A DNA stretch of 64,000 bases. It comes from a bacterium. Lineage in GTDB: Bacteria; Patescibacteriota; Patescibacteriia; JACPHY01. Positions within the stretch are counted from its first letter, which is position 1. Every line of letters begins with the position of its first letter. Where the stretch lies: the NCBI GenBank assembly GCA_030647005.1, contig JAUSKG010000021.1, positions 27,105 through 91,104 on the forward strand, written 5' to 3'. The notes beneath the pieces are model-generated. The model was not told where the DNA came from, made no database searches, and saw nothing but the letters and a program-made list of their open reading frames with translations. A program made the translations under genes and the position numbers. Shown one piece after another: positions 84-51,498 of this stretch.

Positions 84-117
84 AGTTACAACACGAGCGT
101 GTAGCATTTTTTCGTTC

Positions 118-190
118 GTCATTGCGAGGAGTCCCGAGGCAAGCTCGGGATTCCGGCTTGCCTCCATCTCGCAACGTCGGAGTCCGCGCT
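118..190. repeat. Degenerate copy of palindromic 'GTCATTGCGAGG...GGCAATCCCGG' element (family B)
   Basis: tcgtcattgcgaggagtcccgaggcaagctcgggattccgg... matches left arm of the 38704 and 60555 copies; directly downstream of tRNA-Pro. Confidence 0.5.
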
Positions 191-199
191 TCGCGAAGG

Positions 200-355
200 A
201 GGGTAGCTTTGAGCGAAGGAGGAAGTCGAGAAATCTCACTTCCCCCCTTCGTCATTTCGAGCGAGTCCGCGAGTCGAGAAATCTCGTTGAGCAGGAGGAC
301 GTCGCTCGTGCTGTTGGACGAGATCTCTCCACTCGTTCGAGGACTCACTCGGTCG
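200..355. repeat. Family A dispersed repeat cluster (CGTCATTTCGAGCGAGTCCGCGAGTCGAGAAATCTC unit)
   Basis: 36-nt unit present here and, in either orientation, at 36262-36400, 47283-47467 and 47764-47995. Confidence 0.65.
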
Positions 356-468
356 CAATGACGGAGAGGGAGGAGAAGGGGGAAGAGGGGTGTGATGATC
401 CAAAAAGAAGAGACCCGCCAGAGGTCCCCAAGGACATGGCGGGTCAGTTGAAGTGTCGTGCGTGCAGT

Positions 469-4675: not shown

Positions 4676-5314
4676 ATGCCCATCACCCTTATCTTCAACC
4701 AGCCAGCAGTTGGTCTCGCGTGGGTCGCAGCCATCCTCGTGGCGCTCGCCATCCATGAGTACGCCCACGCGCTCGTGGGATCATGGCTCGGTGACTCCAC
4801 GGCGCGACACGAGGGGCGACTCACGCTCAACCCGCTCGCGCATGTGGACCCCTTTGGGTTCCTCATGCTCCTCCTTGTGGGATTCGGGTGGGGAAAACCC
4901 GTCCCGTTTGATCCGTCGCAGCTGAAGTACCGCACGTGGGGCCCGGCCATCGTTGCGCTCGCCGGCCCCGCGATGAATCTCATCGGGCTCACGACCGCGG
5001 GTATCCTCCTCGGGGTGCTCGATCGCGTCACCGCGCTCCCGCCGAACAACCTCCTCGTGCTCACCCTCGCGTTCGTCTTCCAGATCAACCTCGTCCTCAT
5101 GCTCTTCAACCTTATCCCCATTCCGCCGCTCGATGGGTCAAAGTTGCTCCTCTCCGCGCTCGCGCACCCTCGATACGACCATGCGCGCTTCGTCCTCACG
5201 ACGCGCGGCCCGATCATCCTCCTCGGTATCATTATCCTCGATCGCGCGATGGGTGGTCTCATCTTCGGTCGTCTCTTCCAGGGCGCCATGGAGCGGATCA
5301 TCGGGTTGTTCTAA
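4676..5314 (+). CDS. site-2 protease family (M50) membrane metalloprotease
   Basis: HEYAHAL (HExxH) in TM helix and [10 protein letters not shown] motif; start by first in-frame ATG, possible upstream non-ATG start. Confidence 0.8.
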
Positions 5315-36261: not shown

Positions 36262-36400
36262 CCATCTCCCTCTCGTCATTTCGAGCGAAGTGAGCGCACG
36301 GGCGAACGAAGTCGAGAAATCTCATATGGAGATCTCTCCGCTCTCTGTTGCGGAGCCTGCCCTGAGCGAGTCCGCGAGTCGAACGGGGTCGAGATGACGA
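36262..36400. repeat. Family A repeat copy between scpB and dacA
   Basis: tcgtcatttcgagcgaagtgagcgcacgggcgaacgaagtcgagaaatctc...gagcgagtccgcgagtcgaacggggtcgagatgacg. Confidence 0.65.
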
Positions 36401-38433: not shown

Positions 38434-38507
38434 AGCGGGGTGGAGCAGTTTGGCAGCTCGCCAGGCCCATAACCTGGAGGTCGTCGGTTCAAATCCGACC
38501 CCCGCCA
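38434..38507 (+). tRNA. initiator tRNA-Met (CAT); no encoded CCA
   Basis: Acceptor, D and T arms nearly identical to E. coli tRNA-fMet (GCGGGGTGGAGCAG...GGTCGTCGGTTCAAATCCG); 1:72 A-C mismatch; anticodon loop cCCATAA. Confidence 0.85.
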
Positions 38508-38584
38508 TGAAAAGTGCCCCACTTCGCGTGGGGTGTTTTTCGTTGTTGACGCACCATGTATCCTATGGCATCGTAAATGACTAC

Positions 38585-38656
38585 GGCGGGGTAGCTCAGT
38601 GGTAGAGCAGCGGACTCATAAGCCGTTGGTCGCGGGTTCAACCCCCGCCCCCGCTA
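38585..38656 (+). tRNA. tRNA with CAT anticodon (elongator Met or lysidine-dependent Ile)
   Basis: ggcgggg acceptor, D-arm tagctcagtggtagagca, loop ctCATaa, T-arm gcgggttcaaccccc. Confidence 0.8.
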
Positions 38657-39365: not shown

Positions 39366-39449
39366 TGCCGCGGGAGGGGATCGAACCCTCATGACCTTGC
39401 GGCCACAGGAGTTTGAGTCCTGCGCGTCTGCCGGTTCCGCCACCGCGGC
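39366..39449 (-). tRNA. tRNA-Leu (CAA), type II with long variable arm
   Basis: Reverse complement: gccgcggtggcggaaccggcagacgcgcaggactCAAactcctgtggccgcaaggtcatgagggttcgatcccctcccgcggca. Confidence 0.85.
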
Positions 39450-46554: not shown

Positions 46555-46803
46555 ATGAAGCGGATGTTTGTGGTGTTGTATGTGGTGATGCTTGCGCTCT
46601 TCGCTGTCGGATGTGACACGCGTTCGCAGAAAGATAGGCTTCGTGAGTGGGAGAAGGAGCAAGGGAACTTGGTGGTGGCCAACATGCACTATATACAGGA
46701 CGCGCGTACCGGTTTGTGCTTCGCCCACGTCTTCAGAGAGTGGTCTCTCGCGACCGTTCCCTGCGAGGCGGTCCCTTCCCACCTGCTGCTCGTGGTGAGG
46801 TGA
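46555..46803 (+). CDS. small lipoprotein (82 aa)
   Basis: SD aagggaga; MKRMFVVLYVVMLALFAVGC lipobox-like LFAVGC. Confidence 0.55.
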   Translation: MKRMFVVLYVVMLALFAVGCDTRSQKDRLREWEKEQGNLVVANMHYIQDARTGLCFAHVFREWSLATVPCEAVPSHLLLVVR

Positions 46804-46809
46804 ATTGCC

Positions 46810-47239
46810 ATGCAATCAGCCCTCCTCGTCTCGGCGGCGATGCTGCTCTACGCGGTGCAGAACGTGGTCATCGAGCAGAAGTTCGTGCGGGTGCCGGTGG
46901 TAGTGCTGCTCGTCATCTGCTACGCGGTGATGCTGCCGCTCGCGCTCCTGCGCTTCTGGCATCTCAGGGGTGTTGCCGGTGCCGCAACGTTGCCAACTGG
47001 CACGCTCCTCGCGCTCGCGCTTGGGATGGGTGTCGTGTTGTTCCTCGCGGACTACTGCTCCATGGGCCTACGCCGCAGGCGGATCGCTCATGTCCATCAC
47101 GGTCATCGCGATCCTGTTGCCGGTGTTCGCATCCATCGCGAAGTTCGCGTGGACGCATGAGCTGCCGAACGGCTACCAGCTCGCCGGCTACGCGCTCGCG
47201 GTCATCGCGATCGTTCTTGTTGGCAAAGGCGACGCGTAA
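46810..47239 (+). pseudogene. small DMT/EamA- or SMR-like 4-TM transporter split by a +1 frameshift near 47060-47075
   Basis: Frame-1 ORF 46810..47160 and frame-2 ORF 46970..47239 each carry two TM-like halves; C-terminus GYALAVIAIVLVGKG. Confidence 0.5.
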
Positions 47240-47282
47240 CGCACGAAAGAACCTCGGTCTTCGGACCGAGGTTCTTCCTTTT

Positions 47283-47467
47283 GAGGGGGGGTGTTGAGGG
47301 GGATGAGATTTCTCGACTCGCGGACTCGCTCGAAATGACGAGGGAGGATAGGACTCGCTCGAAATGACGAAGGAAGGTGGAACCCGCTCGAAATGACGAA
47401 GGAAGTTTGTTCCACCTCATTTACCGTCATCTCGACCAAGCGAGTCCTCGAGCGCGTGGAGAGATCT
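47283..47467. repeat. Family A repeat block incl. 3 tandem ~29-bp units (cgctcgaaatgacgaaggaag) and 70-nt direct repeat shared with 47868-47940
   Basis: Read directly; repeat overlaps 3' end of GIY-YIG gene. Confidence 0.7.
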
Positions 47468-47469
47468 CG

Positions 47470-47763
47470 TCAGCACAGTTCGGGGTACAAGTCGCGCAAT
47501 GCGGGGTTCGTGGCTCTGATGAGTTCCAGCTTCTTAATCCTGCTCCAGCGTTTGAGCTGCTTCTCGCGCTCGATAGCATCCATGGCGGTCGCGTACTGCT
47601 CGTAGTAGATGAGGACAGTGCAGTGGTATCGCTCGGTAAACCCTCTGACAAATTTTTCCTGATGCTCCCAAACGCGGCGGATGAGGTTGTTGGTGATACC
47701 GATGTAGAGGACGGTGCGTTTGACGTTCGTGAGAATGTAGACGTAGTAGTGGCGCTCGTCCAT
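47470..47763 (-). CDS. GIY-YIG domain nuclease, small stand-alone type (97 aa)
   Basis: YYVYILTNVKRTVLYIGITNNLIRRVWEH ... ERE ... KKLELI (GIY-YIG/URI signature). Confidence 0.85.
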   Translation of the reverse strand: MDERHYYVYILTNVKRTVLYIGITNNLIRRVWEHQEKFVRGFTERYHCTVLIYYEQYATAMDAIEREKQLKRWSRIKKLELIRATNPALRDLYPELC

Positions 47764-47995
47764 AGCGTGAGATCTCTCGACTTCGCTCCGCTCCGCTCGA
47801 GATGACGGGGGGGCAGGAAGGGATCGCTCGAGATGACGAGAGTGGGATTGCTTTGTGTTTCATTCCTCGTCATCTCGACCAAGCGAGTCCTCGAGCGCGT
47901 GGAGAGATCTCGTCAGCACAGTTCGGGGCGCATTTCGCGTAGCGCGACAAGATTTCTCCGCTCGCGGACTCGGTCGAAATGACGGAGGAGGAGAG
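47764..47995. repeat. Family A repeat block upstream of GIY-YIG; contains second copy of 70-nt direct repeat incl. a remnant GIY-YIG 3' end (…PELC*)
   Basis: cgtcatctcgaccaagcgagtcctcgagcgcgtggagagatctcgtcagcacagttcgggg repeated at 47425 and 47868. Confidence 0.7.
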
Positions 47996-48001
47996 GTCCA
48001 C

Positions 48002-50368
48002 TCACTTTTTTCGCTTCCCTCCCCACTTCCTCCCGGGCCCGCGTGCGCGTTTTTTCGTGAGGAGCTCCATCGCCGCTTCGAGTGTGATGTCCTCGACGGA
48101 GGACTTCTTGGGGATGCTCGCGTGCGTGGTGCCGTCCGTCACGTACGGGCCAAAGCGGCCGTCCTTCACCTGGATTGGAGTATTCGTGGCGGGGTCCTCG
48201 CCGAGGGTGCGCAAGGGTTCTGCTGCTTTGCGCTTGCGCTCCGTGGCCTCTGCGCAGAGCGTGATAGCGCGCTCGAGCGCGATCGTCGTGGGGTCCTCGC
48301 CTTCGGGAATAGTCGCGTTGCGTGTGCCGCAGGAGACGTACGGGCCAAAGCGTCCGAGGTTCGCGGTCACACGTTCGCCGTCGTGCTCGCCGAGGTCGCG
48401 CGGGAAGTTGAGGAGTGCGAGCGCCTGGTCGAGCGTGAGTGTGTCGCGATCCTGTCCCTTGAGGAGCGATGACGACTTCGGCTTCTGTCGCTTCGGCTTG
48501 GCCTTGGACGGCTTGCCGGACTTCAGCGGCTTCGGCGGGATCATCGGCATGTCCTCGAGGCGGCCGAGCTGCACGTACGGCCCGAAGCGACCGAGGCGCA
48601 CGAGGATGGGGAGACCGGTTTCTCCATCTTCGCCGAGTACGCGCTCCTGCGAGACATCGGCTTTCGTGAGTGCTTCCTGCTTCTCTTGGACTTCTCGCGC
48701 GAATGGCTCCCAGAAGCCCTTGAGGAACGCGACCTCTTCCGTTTTTCCTTCGGCGATATCGTCCAAGTCCTCCTCCATCTTCGCGGTGAATTGGAGGTCA
48801 ACGATGTTCCCGAAGTGCTCGGCGAGGAGGTCGTTCACCATGAACGCGACATCCCCCGGGATGAGCTGCTTGCCGTCGCGTTCGATGTACCCGCGCGCCT
48901 GGATCGTGGAGATCGTGGGCGCGTACGTGGACGGGCGACCGATACCCTCCTCCTCGAGCTTCTTCACGAGCGATGCCTCGGTGTAGCGCGGTGGCGGTTT
49001 CGTGAAGTGCTGTTCCGGGGTGAGTCCGTCAAGCTCGCACTGCTCTCCCTCGCGGAGCGGTGGCAGGAACTTCTCACCCTCGACGTCGTCCTGCTCGCGT
49101 GCGGGCTCGTCTTCATCGCGTCCCTCCTGGTACGCGCGGAGGAACCCATCGAAGATGATGGTCTGTCCGGTGGCGCGGAATGTGTACATGATTGCCGATT
49201 TCGCCTCGATGTTGACGCCCACGCGCTTGAGTTTGGCATCGGGCATCTGGCAGGCCATCGTGCGCATCCAGATGAGTTCGTAGAGCGCGCGCTGCTTGTC
49301 ATCGGCAACCGTGAGCGACGATGGCGTGTGCGTGGCGTCGGTGGGTCGGATGGCCTCGTGCGCCTCCTGCGCGCCCTTCGCTTTCGTCGTGAACGTCCGC
49401 GGCGCGGGGAGGACATACGCGGGTCCGAACTGTTCGCCAACCTGCTTTGTGATGGTCGTGATGGCTTCTGCAGCGATGTTGACCGAGTCCGTTCGCATGT
49501 AGGTGATGTGACCGGTCTCGTAGAGCTTCTGCGCGAGTATCATGGTCTGGCGCACGCCGAAGCCGAGTTTTCGTGACGCCTCCTGCTGGAGCGTCGAGGT
49601 CGTGAACGGTGCGGCCGGTTTCCGTGATGCCTCCTTCTCCTCGACGTTCGCGACCGTCCACGTCGCATCGCGACACGCGCGCACGACTGCGTCCGCCTCC
49701 GCCGCGTCCTTCGGCACGAACTTTTCGTCGTCGCGCTGCTTGAGCGATGCGGAGAACGATTGCTGCGCGCTCGCGTGGAGCATCGCGTCCACGCTCCAGT
49801 ATTCCTCCGGCGTGAACGCCTTGATCTCGCGCTCGCGGTCCACGATGATCTTCACCGCGACGGATTGGACGCGGCCAGCGGAGAGTCCGGGGCCCACCTT
49901 GCGCCAGAGGAGCGGGGAGAGTGTGTAGCCGACGAGCCGGTCGAGGATGCGCCGCGCCTGCTGGGCGGACACGAGCTTCATGTCAATCGAGCGGGGGTGC
50001 GCGAGCGCACGCTCGATGGCCGACTTCGTGATCTCGTGGAACACGATGCGCTTCGTGCGCTCCGGCGGGAGTCCGAGCGCCTCGGCGACGTGCCACGCGA
50101 TGGCCTCTCCCTCGCGGTCTTCGTCGGACGCGAGGATGACCTCATCGGCTGCTTTTGCCGCCTTCTTGAGCGTGGCGACGTGCTGCTTGGAGTCCGGTGG
50201 GACTTCGTACGCTGGTGCGAAATCGTGCGCGACGTCCACGCCCATCTTGCTCTTCGGGAGATCGCGGATGTGCCCGAACGATGACTCCACGGTGAAGTCA
50301 CTGCCGAGGAATTTCTTGATCGTGCGCGCCTTCGTGGGGGACTCGACGATGACGAGGGTTTTTGCCAT
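48002..50368 (-). CDS. topA: DNA topoisomerase I with C-terminal GRFGPYV repeat domain
   Basis: MAKTLVIVESPTKARTIKKFLG...GHIRDLP; start set at internal MAKTLV (track ORF extends to 50476). Confidence 0.95.
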   Translation of the reverse strand: MAKTLVIVESPTKARTIKKFLGSDFTVESSFGHIRDLPKSKMGVDVAHDFAPAYEVPPDSKQHVATLKKAAKAADEVILASDEDREGEAIAWHVAEALGLPPERTKRIVFHEITKSAIERALAHPRSIDMKLVSAQQARRILDRLVGYTLSPLLWRKVGPGLSAGRVQSVAVKIIVDREREIKAFTPEEYWSVDAMLHASAQQSFSASLKQRDDEKFVPKDAAEADAVVRACRDATWTVANVEEKEASRKPAAPFTTSTLQQEASRKLGFGVRQTMILAQKLYETGHITYMRTDSVNIAAEAITTITKQVGEQFGPAYVLPAPRTFTTKAKGAQEAHEAIRPTDATHTPSSLTVADDKQRALYELIWMRTMACQMPDAKLKRVGVNIEAKSAIMYTFRATGQTIIFDGFLRAYQEGRDEDEPAREQDDVEGEKFLPPLREGEQCELDGLTPEQHFTKPPPRYTEASLVKKLEEEGIGRPSTYAPTISTIQARGYIERDGKQLIPGDVAFMVNDLLAEHFGNIVDLQFTAKMEEDLDDIAEGKTEEVAFLKGFWEPFAREVQEKQEALTKADVSQERVLGEDGETGLPILVRLGRFGPYVQLGRLEDMPMIPPKPLKSGKPSKAKPKRQKPKSSSLLKGQDRDTLTLDQALALLNFPRDLGEHDGERVTANLGRFGPYVSCGTRNATIPEGEDPTTIALERAITLCAEATERKRKAAEPLRTLGEDPATNTPIQVKDGRFGPYVTDGTTHASIPKKSSVEDITLEAAMELLTKKRARGPGRKWGGKRKK

Positions 50369-50406
50369 GGGGTGTGATCGCGGATGAAGAGATGTGCGGA
50401 TACCGC

Positions 50407-51498
50407 TCATGATCGAACGTAGCGGGAGCCGCCTACATCCCTCACCACACCATCGAGCTCCAGGGTTGTCAAGCAACTCGCGAGTTCGTGCGCGGGGGCG
50501 TTGACCACTGCGTGGAGGTCATCCACGTGGATGGGCTCGTGCGAGAGCGCGTCTACGATGCGGGCCGAGAGGCCGGTGAGGTGTGGCGCGGGTCTCGCTG
50601 CGGGGTGGAAGAGTTGGTCGAGGTGGAGGGCTTCCACGATGTCCTCCGCGCGCGTGATGGGCGTGGCACCGGACTTGAGCATGGCGAGCGGGCCCCGTGA
50701 CTCCTCCGCGGTGATCGGGCCGGGGACCGCGAAGACCTCGCGGCCAAAATCGAGCGCGAATCGCGCGGTGATGAGCGCGCCGGAATCACGCGGACACTCG
50801 ACGACGACCGTCCCCATCGAGAGGCCGGCGACGATGCGGTTGCGCGCGGGGAAGTGCATCTTGAGGCCCGCGGTGCCCGGGACGTACTCGGAGACGAGCA
50901 CTCCACCGGCGTCGAGGATGTCCCGCGCGAGCCCCCGGTGGTGGCGCGGGTAGATCGCGGCGTCATCAATGCCGGTACCGAGCACCGCGAGCGTGCGGCC
51001 ACCAACCTCGAGCGCCGCGCGGTGCGCAGCGCCATCAATCCCGAGCGCGAGGCCCGACGTGATCGTGAGGCCAGATCGCGCGAGCGGTCCAACGAGGAGA
51101 CGGGTTGCCGCGAGGCCGTAGTCCGTCGCGCGCCGCGTTCCGACGAATGCGATCTGCTGCGTGACGAGCGCGTCGGCTGCGCCGCGGACGAAGAGGACGA
51201 GCGGGGGATCGGGGATGGTCTTGAGGAGCGCGGGGTAGCGCGCGTCCGTGCGCGGGATGAGCACGATGCCGCCTGCGAGCATCGTTGCGGCGAGTGCGGG
51301 GACATCGATCGTCGGGCGTGCACCGAGGACGTTCGCAACGGTTTGCGGCATCATGCCGACCGCTTCAAGGTCTGCGCGGCGCGCTCCCCACGCTGCGGTG
51401 GGTGAGCCGCAGCGCTCGACGAGTCGCCAGAGGCGGACGCTCCCGATGATGTCGGTGAGCGCGGCGAGGCCGATCCAGGAAGTGAGCGTCGCGTCCAT
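50407..51498 (-). CDS. dprA: DNA processing protein DprA/Smf
   Basis: Rossmann-like DprA core ...GLALGIDGAAHRAALEVGGRTLAVLGTGID... Confidence 0.9.
   Translation of the reverse strand: MDATLTSWIGLAALTDIIGSVRLWRLVERCGSPTAAWGARRADLEAVGMMPQTVANVLGARPTIDVPALAATMLAGGIVLIPRTDARYPALLKTIPDPPLVLFVRGAADALVTQQIAFVGTRRATDYGLAATRLLVGPLARSGLTITSGLALGIDGAAHRAALEVGGRTLAVLGTGIDDAAIYPRHHRGLARDILDAGGVLVSEYVPGTAGLKMHFPARNRIVAGLSMGTVVVECPRDSGALITARFALDFGREVFAVPGPITAEESRGPLAMLKSGATPITRAEDIVEALHLDQLFHPAARPAPHLTGLSARIVDALSHEPIHVDDLHAVVNAPAHELASCLTTLELDGVVRDVGGSRYVRS

Follow-up and report, generated by a model that had tools for sequence, protein, structure and literature searches.

A GIY-YIG nuclease gene among CGTC-tagged hairpin repeats next to topA: a probable Ssn/SRM locus in a Patescibacteria-like genome

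We analysed a window of 64 kb from contig JAUSKG010000021.1 (the window being the whole stretch of 64,000 nucleotides considered here), in which a small GIY-YIG nuclease gene is surrounded by short dispersed repeats that a first-pass annotation had designated family A. The locus probably represents an Ssn/SRM locus, with the family A repeats being the cognate hairpin repeats of the nuclease and a variant of the Ssn-related motifs (SRM). The gene is present in the usual layout of the Ssn family, inside a mosaic of full and truncated units that resembles Neisseria intergenic mosaic elements (NIME) and bacterial interspersed mosaic elements (BIME) and extends from topA to a convergent membrane-protein gene. 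A tract that includes the very end of the gene occurs a second time in this mosaic, and the duplicate most likely arose through a local rearrangement of the repeat array, not through the presence of one mobile element inside another.

The nuclease and its repeats

SsnA of Neisseria meningitidis (NMV_0044/NMB0047) is a 94-residue, single-domain GIY-YIG protein corresponding to CDD cd10448 (Chenal et al., Nat Commun 2025, PMC11893778). Its target, the hairpin repeat NTS with the sequence CGTCATTCCCGCGMAVGCGGGAATCYRG, is bound solely as single-stranded DNA (ssDNA) and is cut a few nucleotides upstream, and among its bases the C right after the NTS palindrome matters most for binding (PMC11893778). 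Ssn homologs across bacteria are flanked by SRM of their own (PMC11893778). The arrangement NTS-ssnA-NTS looks like an insertion sequence (IS), with domestication and mobility being hypotheses of those authors only (PMC11893778).

The intact gene in the window (hereafter ssn; 47470–47763, minus strand) is the sole long GIY-YIG open reading frame (ORF) and encodes a single-domain nuclease of 97 residues. Residues 6–76 matched PF01541 (E=1.2e-13), no other domain was found, and the homologs of the protein are 93–110 residues in length. Y9, Y20, R30, H34, E67 and N86 were invariant across the homolog alignment. The likeness to SsnA was judged via an NTS-flanked homolog from Collimonas (locus L012) as a proxy, together with the published residue numbers. 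The window protein was 50% identical to the Collimonas homolog (E=8e-37), and its Y9, Y20 and E67 aligned with Y6, Y17 and E64 of the latter, the residues mutated in SsnA being Y6, Y17 and E64 (PMC11893778). In the Collimonas locus, CGTCATTCCCGCGAACGCGGGAATCCAT, which is the published NTS consensus save for its last base, is situated 8 nt before the ATG, and an inverted copy follows 1 nt after the stop codon. We consider it likely that the 97-residue protein belongs to the Ssn endonucleases, a family that cleaves ssDNA site-specifically. Among other resources, neither a specific NCBIfam family nor a PADLOC defence family was obtained for the window protein, and PHROG 'homing endonuclease' entries matched it weakly (E=0.003–0.008). 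Weak sequence matches in the PDB were to UPF0213/YhbQ (E=0.08–0.09) and SLX1; membership in UPF0213/YhbQ was rejected with an E-value of about 0.1.

The repeat units have common ends. The motif CGCTCGARATGACG had 18 matches with at most two mismatches, where 3.35 were expected and none of 100 shuffles gave more than 7. Units are built on a common plan consisting of CGTC, a 5-bp closing stem starting with A-T/T-A (or G-C), GA, a variable interior, GA, the second half of the stem and C(T)C. The interior spans about 4–90 nt and whole units 29–123 nt, and on the coding strand the family A units begin with the head CGTCAT(T/C)TCGA and end with the tail G(A/T/C)GGAGA(A/G)ATCTC. When 31 units, drawn from the window as well as from five related loci, were compared, the closing stem paired in 142 of 155 cells, whereas controls with shuffled tails gave a mean of 120 and a maximum of 132, with none of 5000 reaching 142. 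The stem types were compensatory: ATTTC/GAAAT, ATCTC/GAGAT, GTCTC/GAGAC, ATCCT/AGGAT, ATTCT/AGAAT, GTCCT/AGGAC and ATGCT/AGCAT. The GA conserved after the 5′ half of the stem and before the 3′ half may form tandem G·A pairs that extend the stem. Two of the stem subtypes coexist in this one genome; T-type units (ATTTC/GAAAT) are located at 250, 36274, 47340 and 47984, and C-type units (ATCTC/GAGAT) at 36399, 47425, 47807 and 47868.

Read along the coding strand of ssn, the topA stop codon (48004–48002) is followed after 17 nt by a forward T-type unit (47984–47949, minus strand), and then by what appears to be a relic of an ssn 3′ end (47948–47913), an inverted unit (47911–47868), a 30-nt spacer and a head-only, 5′-truncated unit (47838–47808, minus strand) with a pyrimidine-rich stretch after it. 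A forward C-type unit, CGTCATCTCGAGCGGAGCGGAGCGAAGTCGAGAGATCTC (47807–47769, minus strand), comes next and is separated by 5 nt from the ATG of ssn (47763–47470). One nucleotide past the ssn stop codon lies an inverted C-type unit (47468–47425, plus strand), after which a 27-nt spacer, two tandem head-only units with a 29-nt period (47398–47341, minus strand) and a forward T-type unit (47340–47305, minus strand) follow. Next comes the hairpin of the terminator that belongs to the convergent membrane-protein gene. The 36 nt of the unit at 47340–47305 are identical to those of the unit at 250–285, 47 kb away.

In total, the 64 kb contain three intergenic clusters with at least 14 units. The two other clusters carry no ssn gene. 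One of them (117–363) is located directly after a tRNA-Pro (GGG) gene, the two together occupying 8–363, and comprises a unit with a long interior (117–237, plus strand), the unit at 250–285 (plus strand) and an inverted unit (320–363, minus strand). The long unit is unusual in its length, has 121 nt between head and tail and an internal hairpin of its own. The other is a dimer with its tails facing (36274–36323, plus strand, and 36329–36399, minus strand) across a 5-nt spacer, and this gene-less dimer joins a T-type with a C-type unit.

Head-only units consist of the head CGTCATYTCGAGCG and a 10–30-nt tail that is pyrimidine-rich or forms a small hairpin. They occur as tandem stacks close to the 5′ side of a full unit, the period being 29, 21 or 42 nt. 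Such stacks were observed in the window (47341–47398 and 47808–47838), in locus L081 (4060–4125), in locus L155 (about 5060–5230, minus strand) and in loci L103, L138, L183 and L188; in 23 of 53 cases, another head was present within 150 nt after a head-only unit. Cleavage by Ssn at its cut site, followed by repair, may have left these stacks as footprints.

With the Ssn/NTS-SRM system the locus shares a single-domain GIY-YIG protein of ~95 residues with the catalytic Tyr/Tyr/Glu at the positions mutated in SsnA, oriented hairpin repeats that stand inverted to each other on the 5′ and 3′ sides of the gene, the CGTC tag, a stem with AT at its start, the C right past the stem, and a dispersal of the repeats over intergenic clusters at a long distance from the single gene. 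It differs in that the window unit has a 5-bp closing stem and a long interior in place of an 8-bp stem and a 3-nt loop. Further differences are the apparently Patescibacteria-like host, an assignment based on the Uhrbacteria and Patescibacteria labels carried by the closest homologs, the head-only arrays, the relic of a second gene end, and the fact that the window member is known from sequence alone.

The units also resemble the CGTC-tagged repetitive extragenic palindromes (REPs), which include dRS3/NIME of Neisseria and RPE-4/RPE-6 of Rickettsia (Di Nocera et al. 2013, PMC3733652). In those REPs the stems start with A-T, T-A, a short C-initial tail is present and no dedicated protein had been found (PMC3733652). 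An unpaired CGTC (or TGTC) tag, first pairs A-T/T-A, a C-initial tail and an occurrence as intergenic dimers or clusters are common to both. On the other hand, CGTC-tagged REPs have 8–9-bp stems with 4–5-nt loops and are mostly head-to-head dimers, whereas the window units combine a short closing stem with a large interior and form dimers with facing tails.

Homologous loci and inheritance of the gene

A homolog-alignment scan of a genome collection gave 80 loci in very diverse bacteria, with 44–61% identity. Flank statistics were obtained from 77 testable homolog loci from GTDB genomes and 1047 control windows. A forward [CT]GTCAT head was found within 150 nt upstream of the gene in 54 of the 77 loci and an inverted head downstream in 55. 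Heads on both sides were found in 42 of the 77, against 0.5% of the control windows. These counts mirror the published ones, in which at least one SRM flanked 71% of the Ssn homologs and both sides were flanked in 42% (PMC11893778). Related heads and tails (CGTCATCCTGAGCG...GTCGAAGGATC and CGTCATATCGAGCGAAGTCGAGATATC) flank homologs in Bacteroides, Bifidobacterium, Clostridia and Cloacimonadota. The first-pass annotation had linked the family A repeats to the GIY-YIG gene; the link, seen here as CGTC-headed repeats of the NTS/SRM type around a gene whose family typically has its own repeats on the flanks, is correct but was already published in 2025 (PMC11893778).

The closest relative (P0002, locus L083) has an ssn product 72% identical to that of the window in a global alignment and 74% by BLASTP. 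Its gene is directly downstream of topA, and the C-terminus of this TopA is 77% identical to that of the window. The units of L083 are arranged as forward, forward, gene, inverted, without the extra module of about 145 nt; the forward unit 17 nt past the topA stop codon in the window is the counterpart of the first post-topA unit in L083. Conserved gene order was also seen for uvrA-ssn in L082 and L084 (80% identical) and for gyrA-ssn in L081, L085 and L086 (77%), gyrA and uvrA themselves not being present in the window. In the three related lineages, one record of which is Candidatus Uhrbacteria, the gene immediately preceding ssn is one for DNA topology or repair, namely topA, gyrA or uvrA (window 47470–50476; L083 2–966; L081 1038–4047; L085 1–568; L082 1–952; L084 3–750).

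The number and orientation of the flanking units vary among orthologous loci, with forward-gene-dimer in L082 and dimer-gene-dimer in L084 and L081. Single units therefore come and go while the gene stays. Homolog proteins identical to one another, found on 14 and on 12 contigs from many samples, had a single gene context each. When metagenomes were scanned for the repeat subtype, 120 loci (815 kb) with 179 units were recovered, and ssn was present in only two of these loci. A permissive tblastn search of the 120 repeat-bearing metagenome loci revealed no further gene relics. Repeats are accordingly common away from GIY-YIG genes, the gene being absent from two of the three window clusters and from 118 of the 120 metagenome loci; the first-pass annotation had named equal frequency of the repeats away from such genes as a finding that would speak against its proposed link between the repeats and GIY-YIG mobility. 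Many of the closest GIY-YIG homologs are on short contigs (~0.6–2 kb), which is consistent with assembly breaks at the flanking arrays.

Taking into account the stable synteny, the single contexts and the 179 units with only two ssn genes, the picture is that of a gene that is present in a single copy, is inherited vertically and has a dispersed repeat on its flanks, as in RAYT/REPIN systems, and not that of a hopping element. RAYT/REPIN (BIME) systems likewise have a usually single-copy, vertically inherited nuclease gene, inverted flanks of a dispersed hairpin repeat and recognition of hairpins in ssDNA. However, RAYTs are relatives of HUH/Y1 transposases (IS200/IS605 type) that act through covalent intermediates, whereas the GIY-YIG enzyme here is hydrolytic, and the REP tag is GTAG in RAYT systems but CGTC here. 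The likeness is one of analogy only, and in contrast to RAYTs, spreading of its own repeats by Ssn is so far not evidenced.

The duplicated tract and its origin

Within the whole window, an exact duplicate of 61 nt occurs twice, at 47425–47485 and 47868–47928 (plus strand), and the similarity including the flanks covers 87 nt at 89% identity (47417–47503 and 47860–47946). The first-pass annotation had described a 70-nt sequence at 47425 and 47868; the duplication and its positions were confirmed, but the length is 61 nt. An exact duplicate of a 61-mer cannot have originated by chance. Both copies are found in the 700-nt mosaic with at least nine short repeat units, in agreement with the earlier statement that they sit within arrays of short repeats.

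The identical tract is composed of one inverted unit and 17 adjoining nucleotides, 16 of which belong to the ORF. In the first copy, the unit is followed by 1 nt and then by the ssn stop codon, the last four codons (P-E-L-C) and 1 further nt (47470–47485), the overlap with the C-terminus and stop that had been pointed out initially. The second copy contains the unit at 47868–47911 and the same 16 nt (47913–47928), reading ...A L R E M R P E L C * without a gene body; here too the original description, that only the last codons (...PELC*) are present, proved accurate. The putative relic extends over 47913–47948 (minus strand). Compared with the gene, it shows full identity over its first 16 nt and, in a fixed register, 12 matching positions among the 19 nt that follow (binomial p about 8e-4), with differences that are synonymous or conservative (GCA/GCG, TTG/CTA, GAC/GAA, TTG/ATG). 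Beyond these 19 nt, the two modules show a loose likeness only.

A family hidden Markov model (HMM) applied to six-frame translations of the repeat clusters missed the relic (best E about 1.4); as this search produced no significant match, DNA identity is what supports it. With the GIY-YIG protein as the query, tblastn against the window found no second copy, giving a weak match on the relic (E=1), and the junction between repeat and gene edge was not found elsewhere in a search of all 219 fetched loci. Taken together, the features of the relic are only suggestive of a diverged second copy of ssn.

Both modules have the same order, namely a gene end, an inverted unit, a spacer of ~27–30 nt, one or more head-only units and a forward unit. 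In its simplest form, a local rearrangement would start with a tandem duplication of the module, or with recombination among repeat units; most of the upstream gene copy would subsequently be lost, and the repeat would have been homogenised recently, by gene conversion or by re-copying.

The first-pass annotation had explained the pattern by nested insertion of a small GIY-YIG unit into its own kind. In a more general form, repeat-gene-repeat would be an autonomous transposon, similar to an IS or a MITE (miniature inverted-repeat transposable element), that moves as a unit, with the gene-less dimers being deletion derivatives and the second 3′ end an insertion scar. The layout of forward unit, gene and inverted unit is indeed IS-like, as the Ssn paper itself remarks (PMC11893778), and gene-less dimers with facing tails (250–363 and 36274–36399), an ssn 3′ relic between a forward and an inverted unit, and many homologs on ~1-kb contigs, as expected of repeats that break assemblies, would all agree with such an element. 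However, the relic stands upstream of the intact gene and has no 5′ half, which makes the arrangement tandem and not nested, and the ends of the units show no visible target-site duplication. In addition, the orientation of the flanking units differs between orthologous loci, synteny is conserved at 72–80% protein identity in three lineages, identical proteins never occur in more than one context, and no further gene relics accompany the 179 repeat units. The window harbours one intact gene and one relic of about 36–37 nt, and what was found does not qualify as an IS or a MITE. GIY-YIG enzymes hydrolyse DNA, and strand transfer is not known for them, a point we also counted against a transposon. 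Autonomous transposition appears very improbable to us, and the tandem geometry, the missing 5′ half, the lack of a target-site duplication and the stable synteny are at odds with nested insertion in particular.

We also considered a selfish gene of the homing type. Here Ssn would cut single-stranded dimers, and repair from a gene-bearing dimer would copy ssn or only its edge into empty dimers, the 61-nt tract being the product of an abortive conversion. The gene exactly fills the gap that separates the tail of a forward unit from that of an inverted one, a gap of only 3–33 nt in gene-less dimers, and the identical tract runs from the repeat into the edge of the gene in a conversion-like manner. 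Against this, the 64 kb contain one intact gene and one relic only, the gene is present in two of the 120 repeat-bearing metagenome loci and a relic in none, the synteny is stable, and the gene of L081 and L084 has a complete dimer on either side instead of being placed inside one. GIY-YIG homing endonucleases such as I-TevI and the Seg proteins have the catalytic domain in common with the window protein, but they carry an added DNA-binding domain, cut double-stranded DNA and reside in introns or phage genomes, whereas the window protein consists of the catalytic domain alone and is chromosomal and syntenic. We regard homing as improbable.

Taking into account that the source is a metagenome-assembled genome (MAG), where the protein is recorded as MDO8463147.1 on a 121-kb contig, and that repeat arrays are hard to assemble, the second copy might be an artefact, with the unit and the gene edge having been doubled by a mis-join that the repeats induced, and a frameshift in the adjoining membrane-protein gene could likewise be a sequence error. 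The flanks of the two copies, however, are not alike and make up a coherent mosaic, in which the forward units, the spacers and the head-only units differ, and the 19 nt past the identical tract are diverged, being neither identical nor unrelated. Similar mosaics were also present in the independent assemblies L081, L082, L084 and L195. We give an assembly artefact hardly any credence.

Returning to an Ssn/SRM locus with a locally rearranged array, we can describe how the nuclease would act by analogy with SsnA of N. meningitidis. The enzyme would bind the unit hairpin only in ssDNA, and its substrates might be incoming transforming DNA or intermediates of replication and repair. Cleavage would take place a few nucleotides 5′ of the CGTC tag, here in the pyrimidine-rich leader, and the effect would be to restrict or modulate the recombination of ssDNA that bears the repeat. 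For Neisseria, reduced transformation by repeat-bearing donor DNA upon ssn expression has been shown.

Several points weigh against this explanation. Eight single units, folded as ssDNA, were no more stable than shuffled sequences (z −0.95 to +1.2), and covariation of the short closing stem is the only evidence for the hairpin. The published SRM pattern, HGTCWYN(0-2)YYVSBRHN(0-5)WNVSBRGN(0-2)RNCYNB, had no match in the window (shuffle mean 0.7) and none in L081 and L082. The pattern fails because the unit interior exceeds the allowed length; it is a search heuristic and not a definition, and the window units are an SRM subtype overlooked by it, not another kind of element. Moreover, the protein and the repeat subtype are known here as sequences only, the history of duplication, deletion and conversion is drawn from one locus and one ortholog, and the end of the identical tract 16 nt inside the gene is left unexplained.

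A bolder variant would be that the repeats are still being copied by an Ssn-dependent process, with the 61-nt tract and the head-only stacks representing footprints of a cut 5′ of CGTC followed by templated repair or conversion. We consider this rather unlikely. If true, it would be the first sequence-level evidence of Ssn nucleases propagating and homogenising the repeats that belong to them, a role that RAYTs are thought to have for REPINs, and the CGTC-tagged REPs would gain their missing mobilising enzyme.

The locus would extend the Ssn/SRM pairing, described in 2025 mainly for RefSeq proteobacteria, to genomes that are apparently of the Patescibacteria type (candidate phyla radiation, CPR). 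The long-interior subtype escapes the published pattern, and published counts of SRM-bearing genomes are therefore probably underestimates. Each pair of an Ssn and its repeat is a potential new specificity of site-specific ssDNA cleavage, and the locus offers a candidate enzyme along with two substrates that vary naturally in their stems (ATTTC/GAAAT and ATCTC/GAGAT). As to how the repeats spread, the relic gene end and the head-only arrays give small hints that are not decisive alone. The Patescibacteria-like host, the long-interior subtype, the head-only arrays and the relic gene end are minor new points.

Neighbouring genes and other features of the window

The topA gene (DNA topoisomerase I, identified by Pfam; 48002–50476, minus strand) is directly upstream of the mosaic and shares its strand with ssn. 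A sigma-70-like promoter was not found anywhere in 46700–48300. Three terminator-like sites, all on the plus strand, are present near 47196–47271, and none between topA and ssn. As no promoter was found and no terminator separates the two genes, co-transcription of ssn with topA is plausible.

An Rfam scan of the whole window at the gathering thresholds detected four tRNAs only, and the repeats matched no RNA family. Two tRNA-Met (CAT) genes are separated by 78 nt (38434–38656), and there is a tRNA-Leu (CAA) gene on the opposite strand (39366–39449), with no repeat units adjoining them.

The small membrane-protein gene convergent with ssn (46810–47239, plus strand) is split by a frameshift near 47060–47075 into ORFs at 46810–47160 and 46970–47239, and is either a pseudogene or affected by a sequence error. 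Its ortholog in L084 (917–1318) is intact, encodes 133 residues with 64–73% identity, and is also convergent with ssn.

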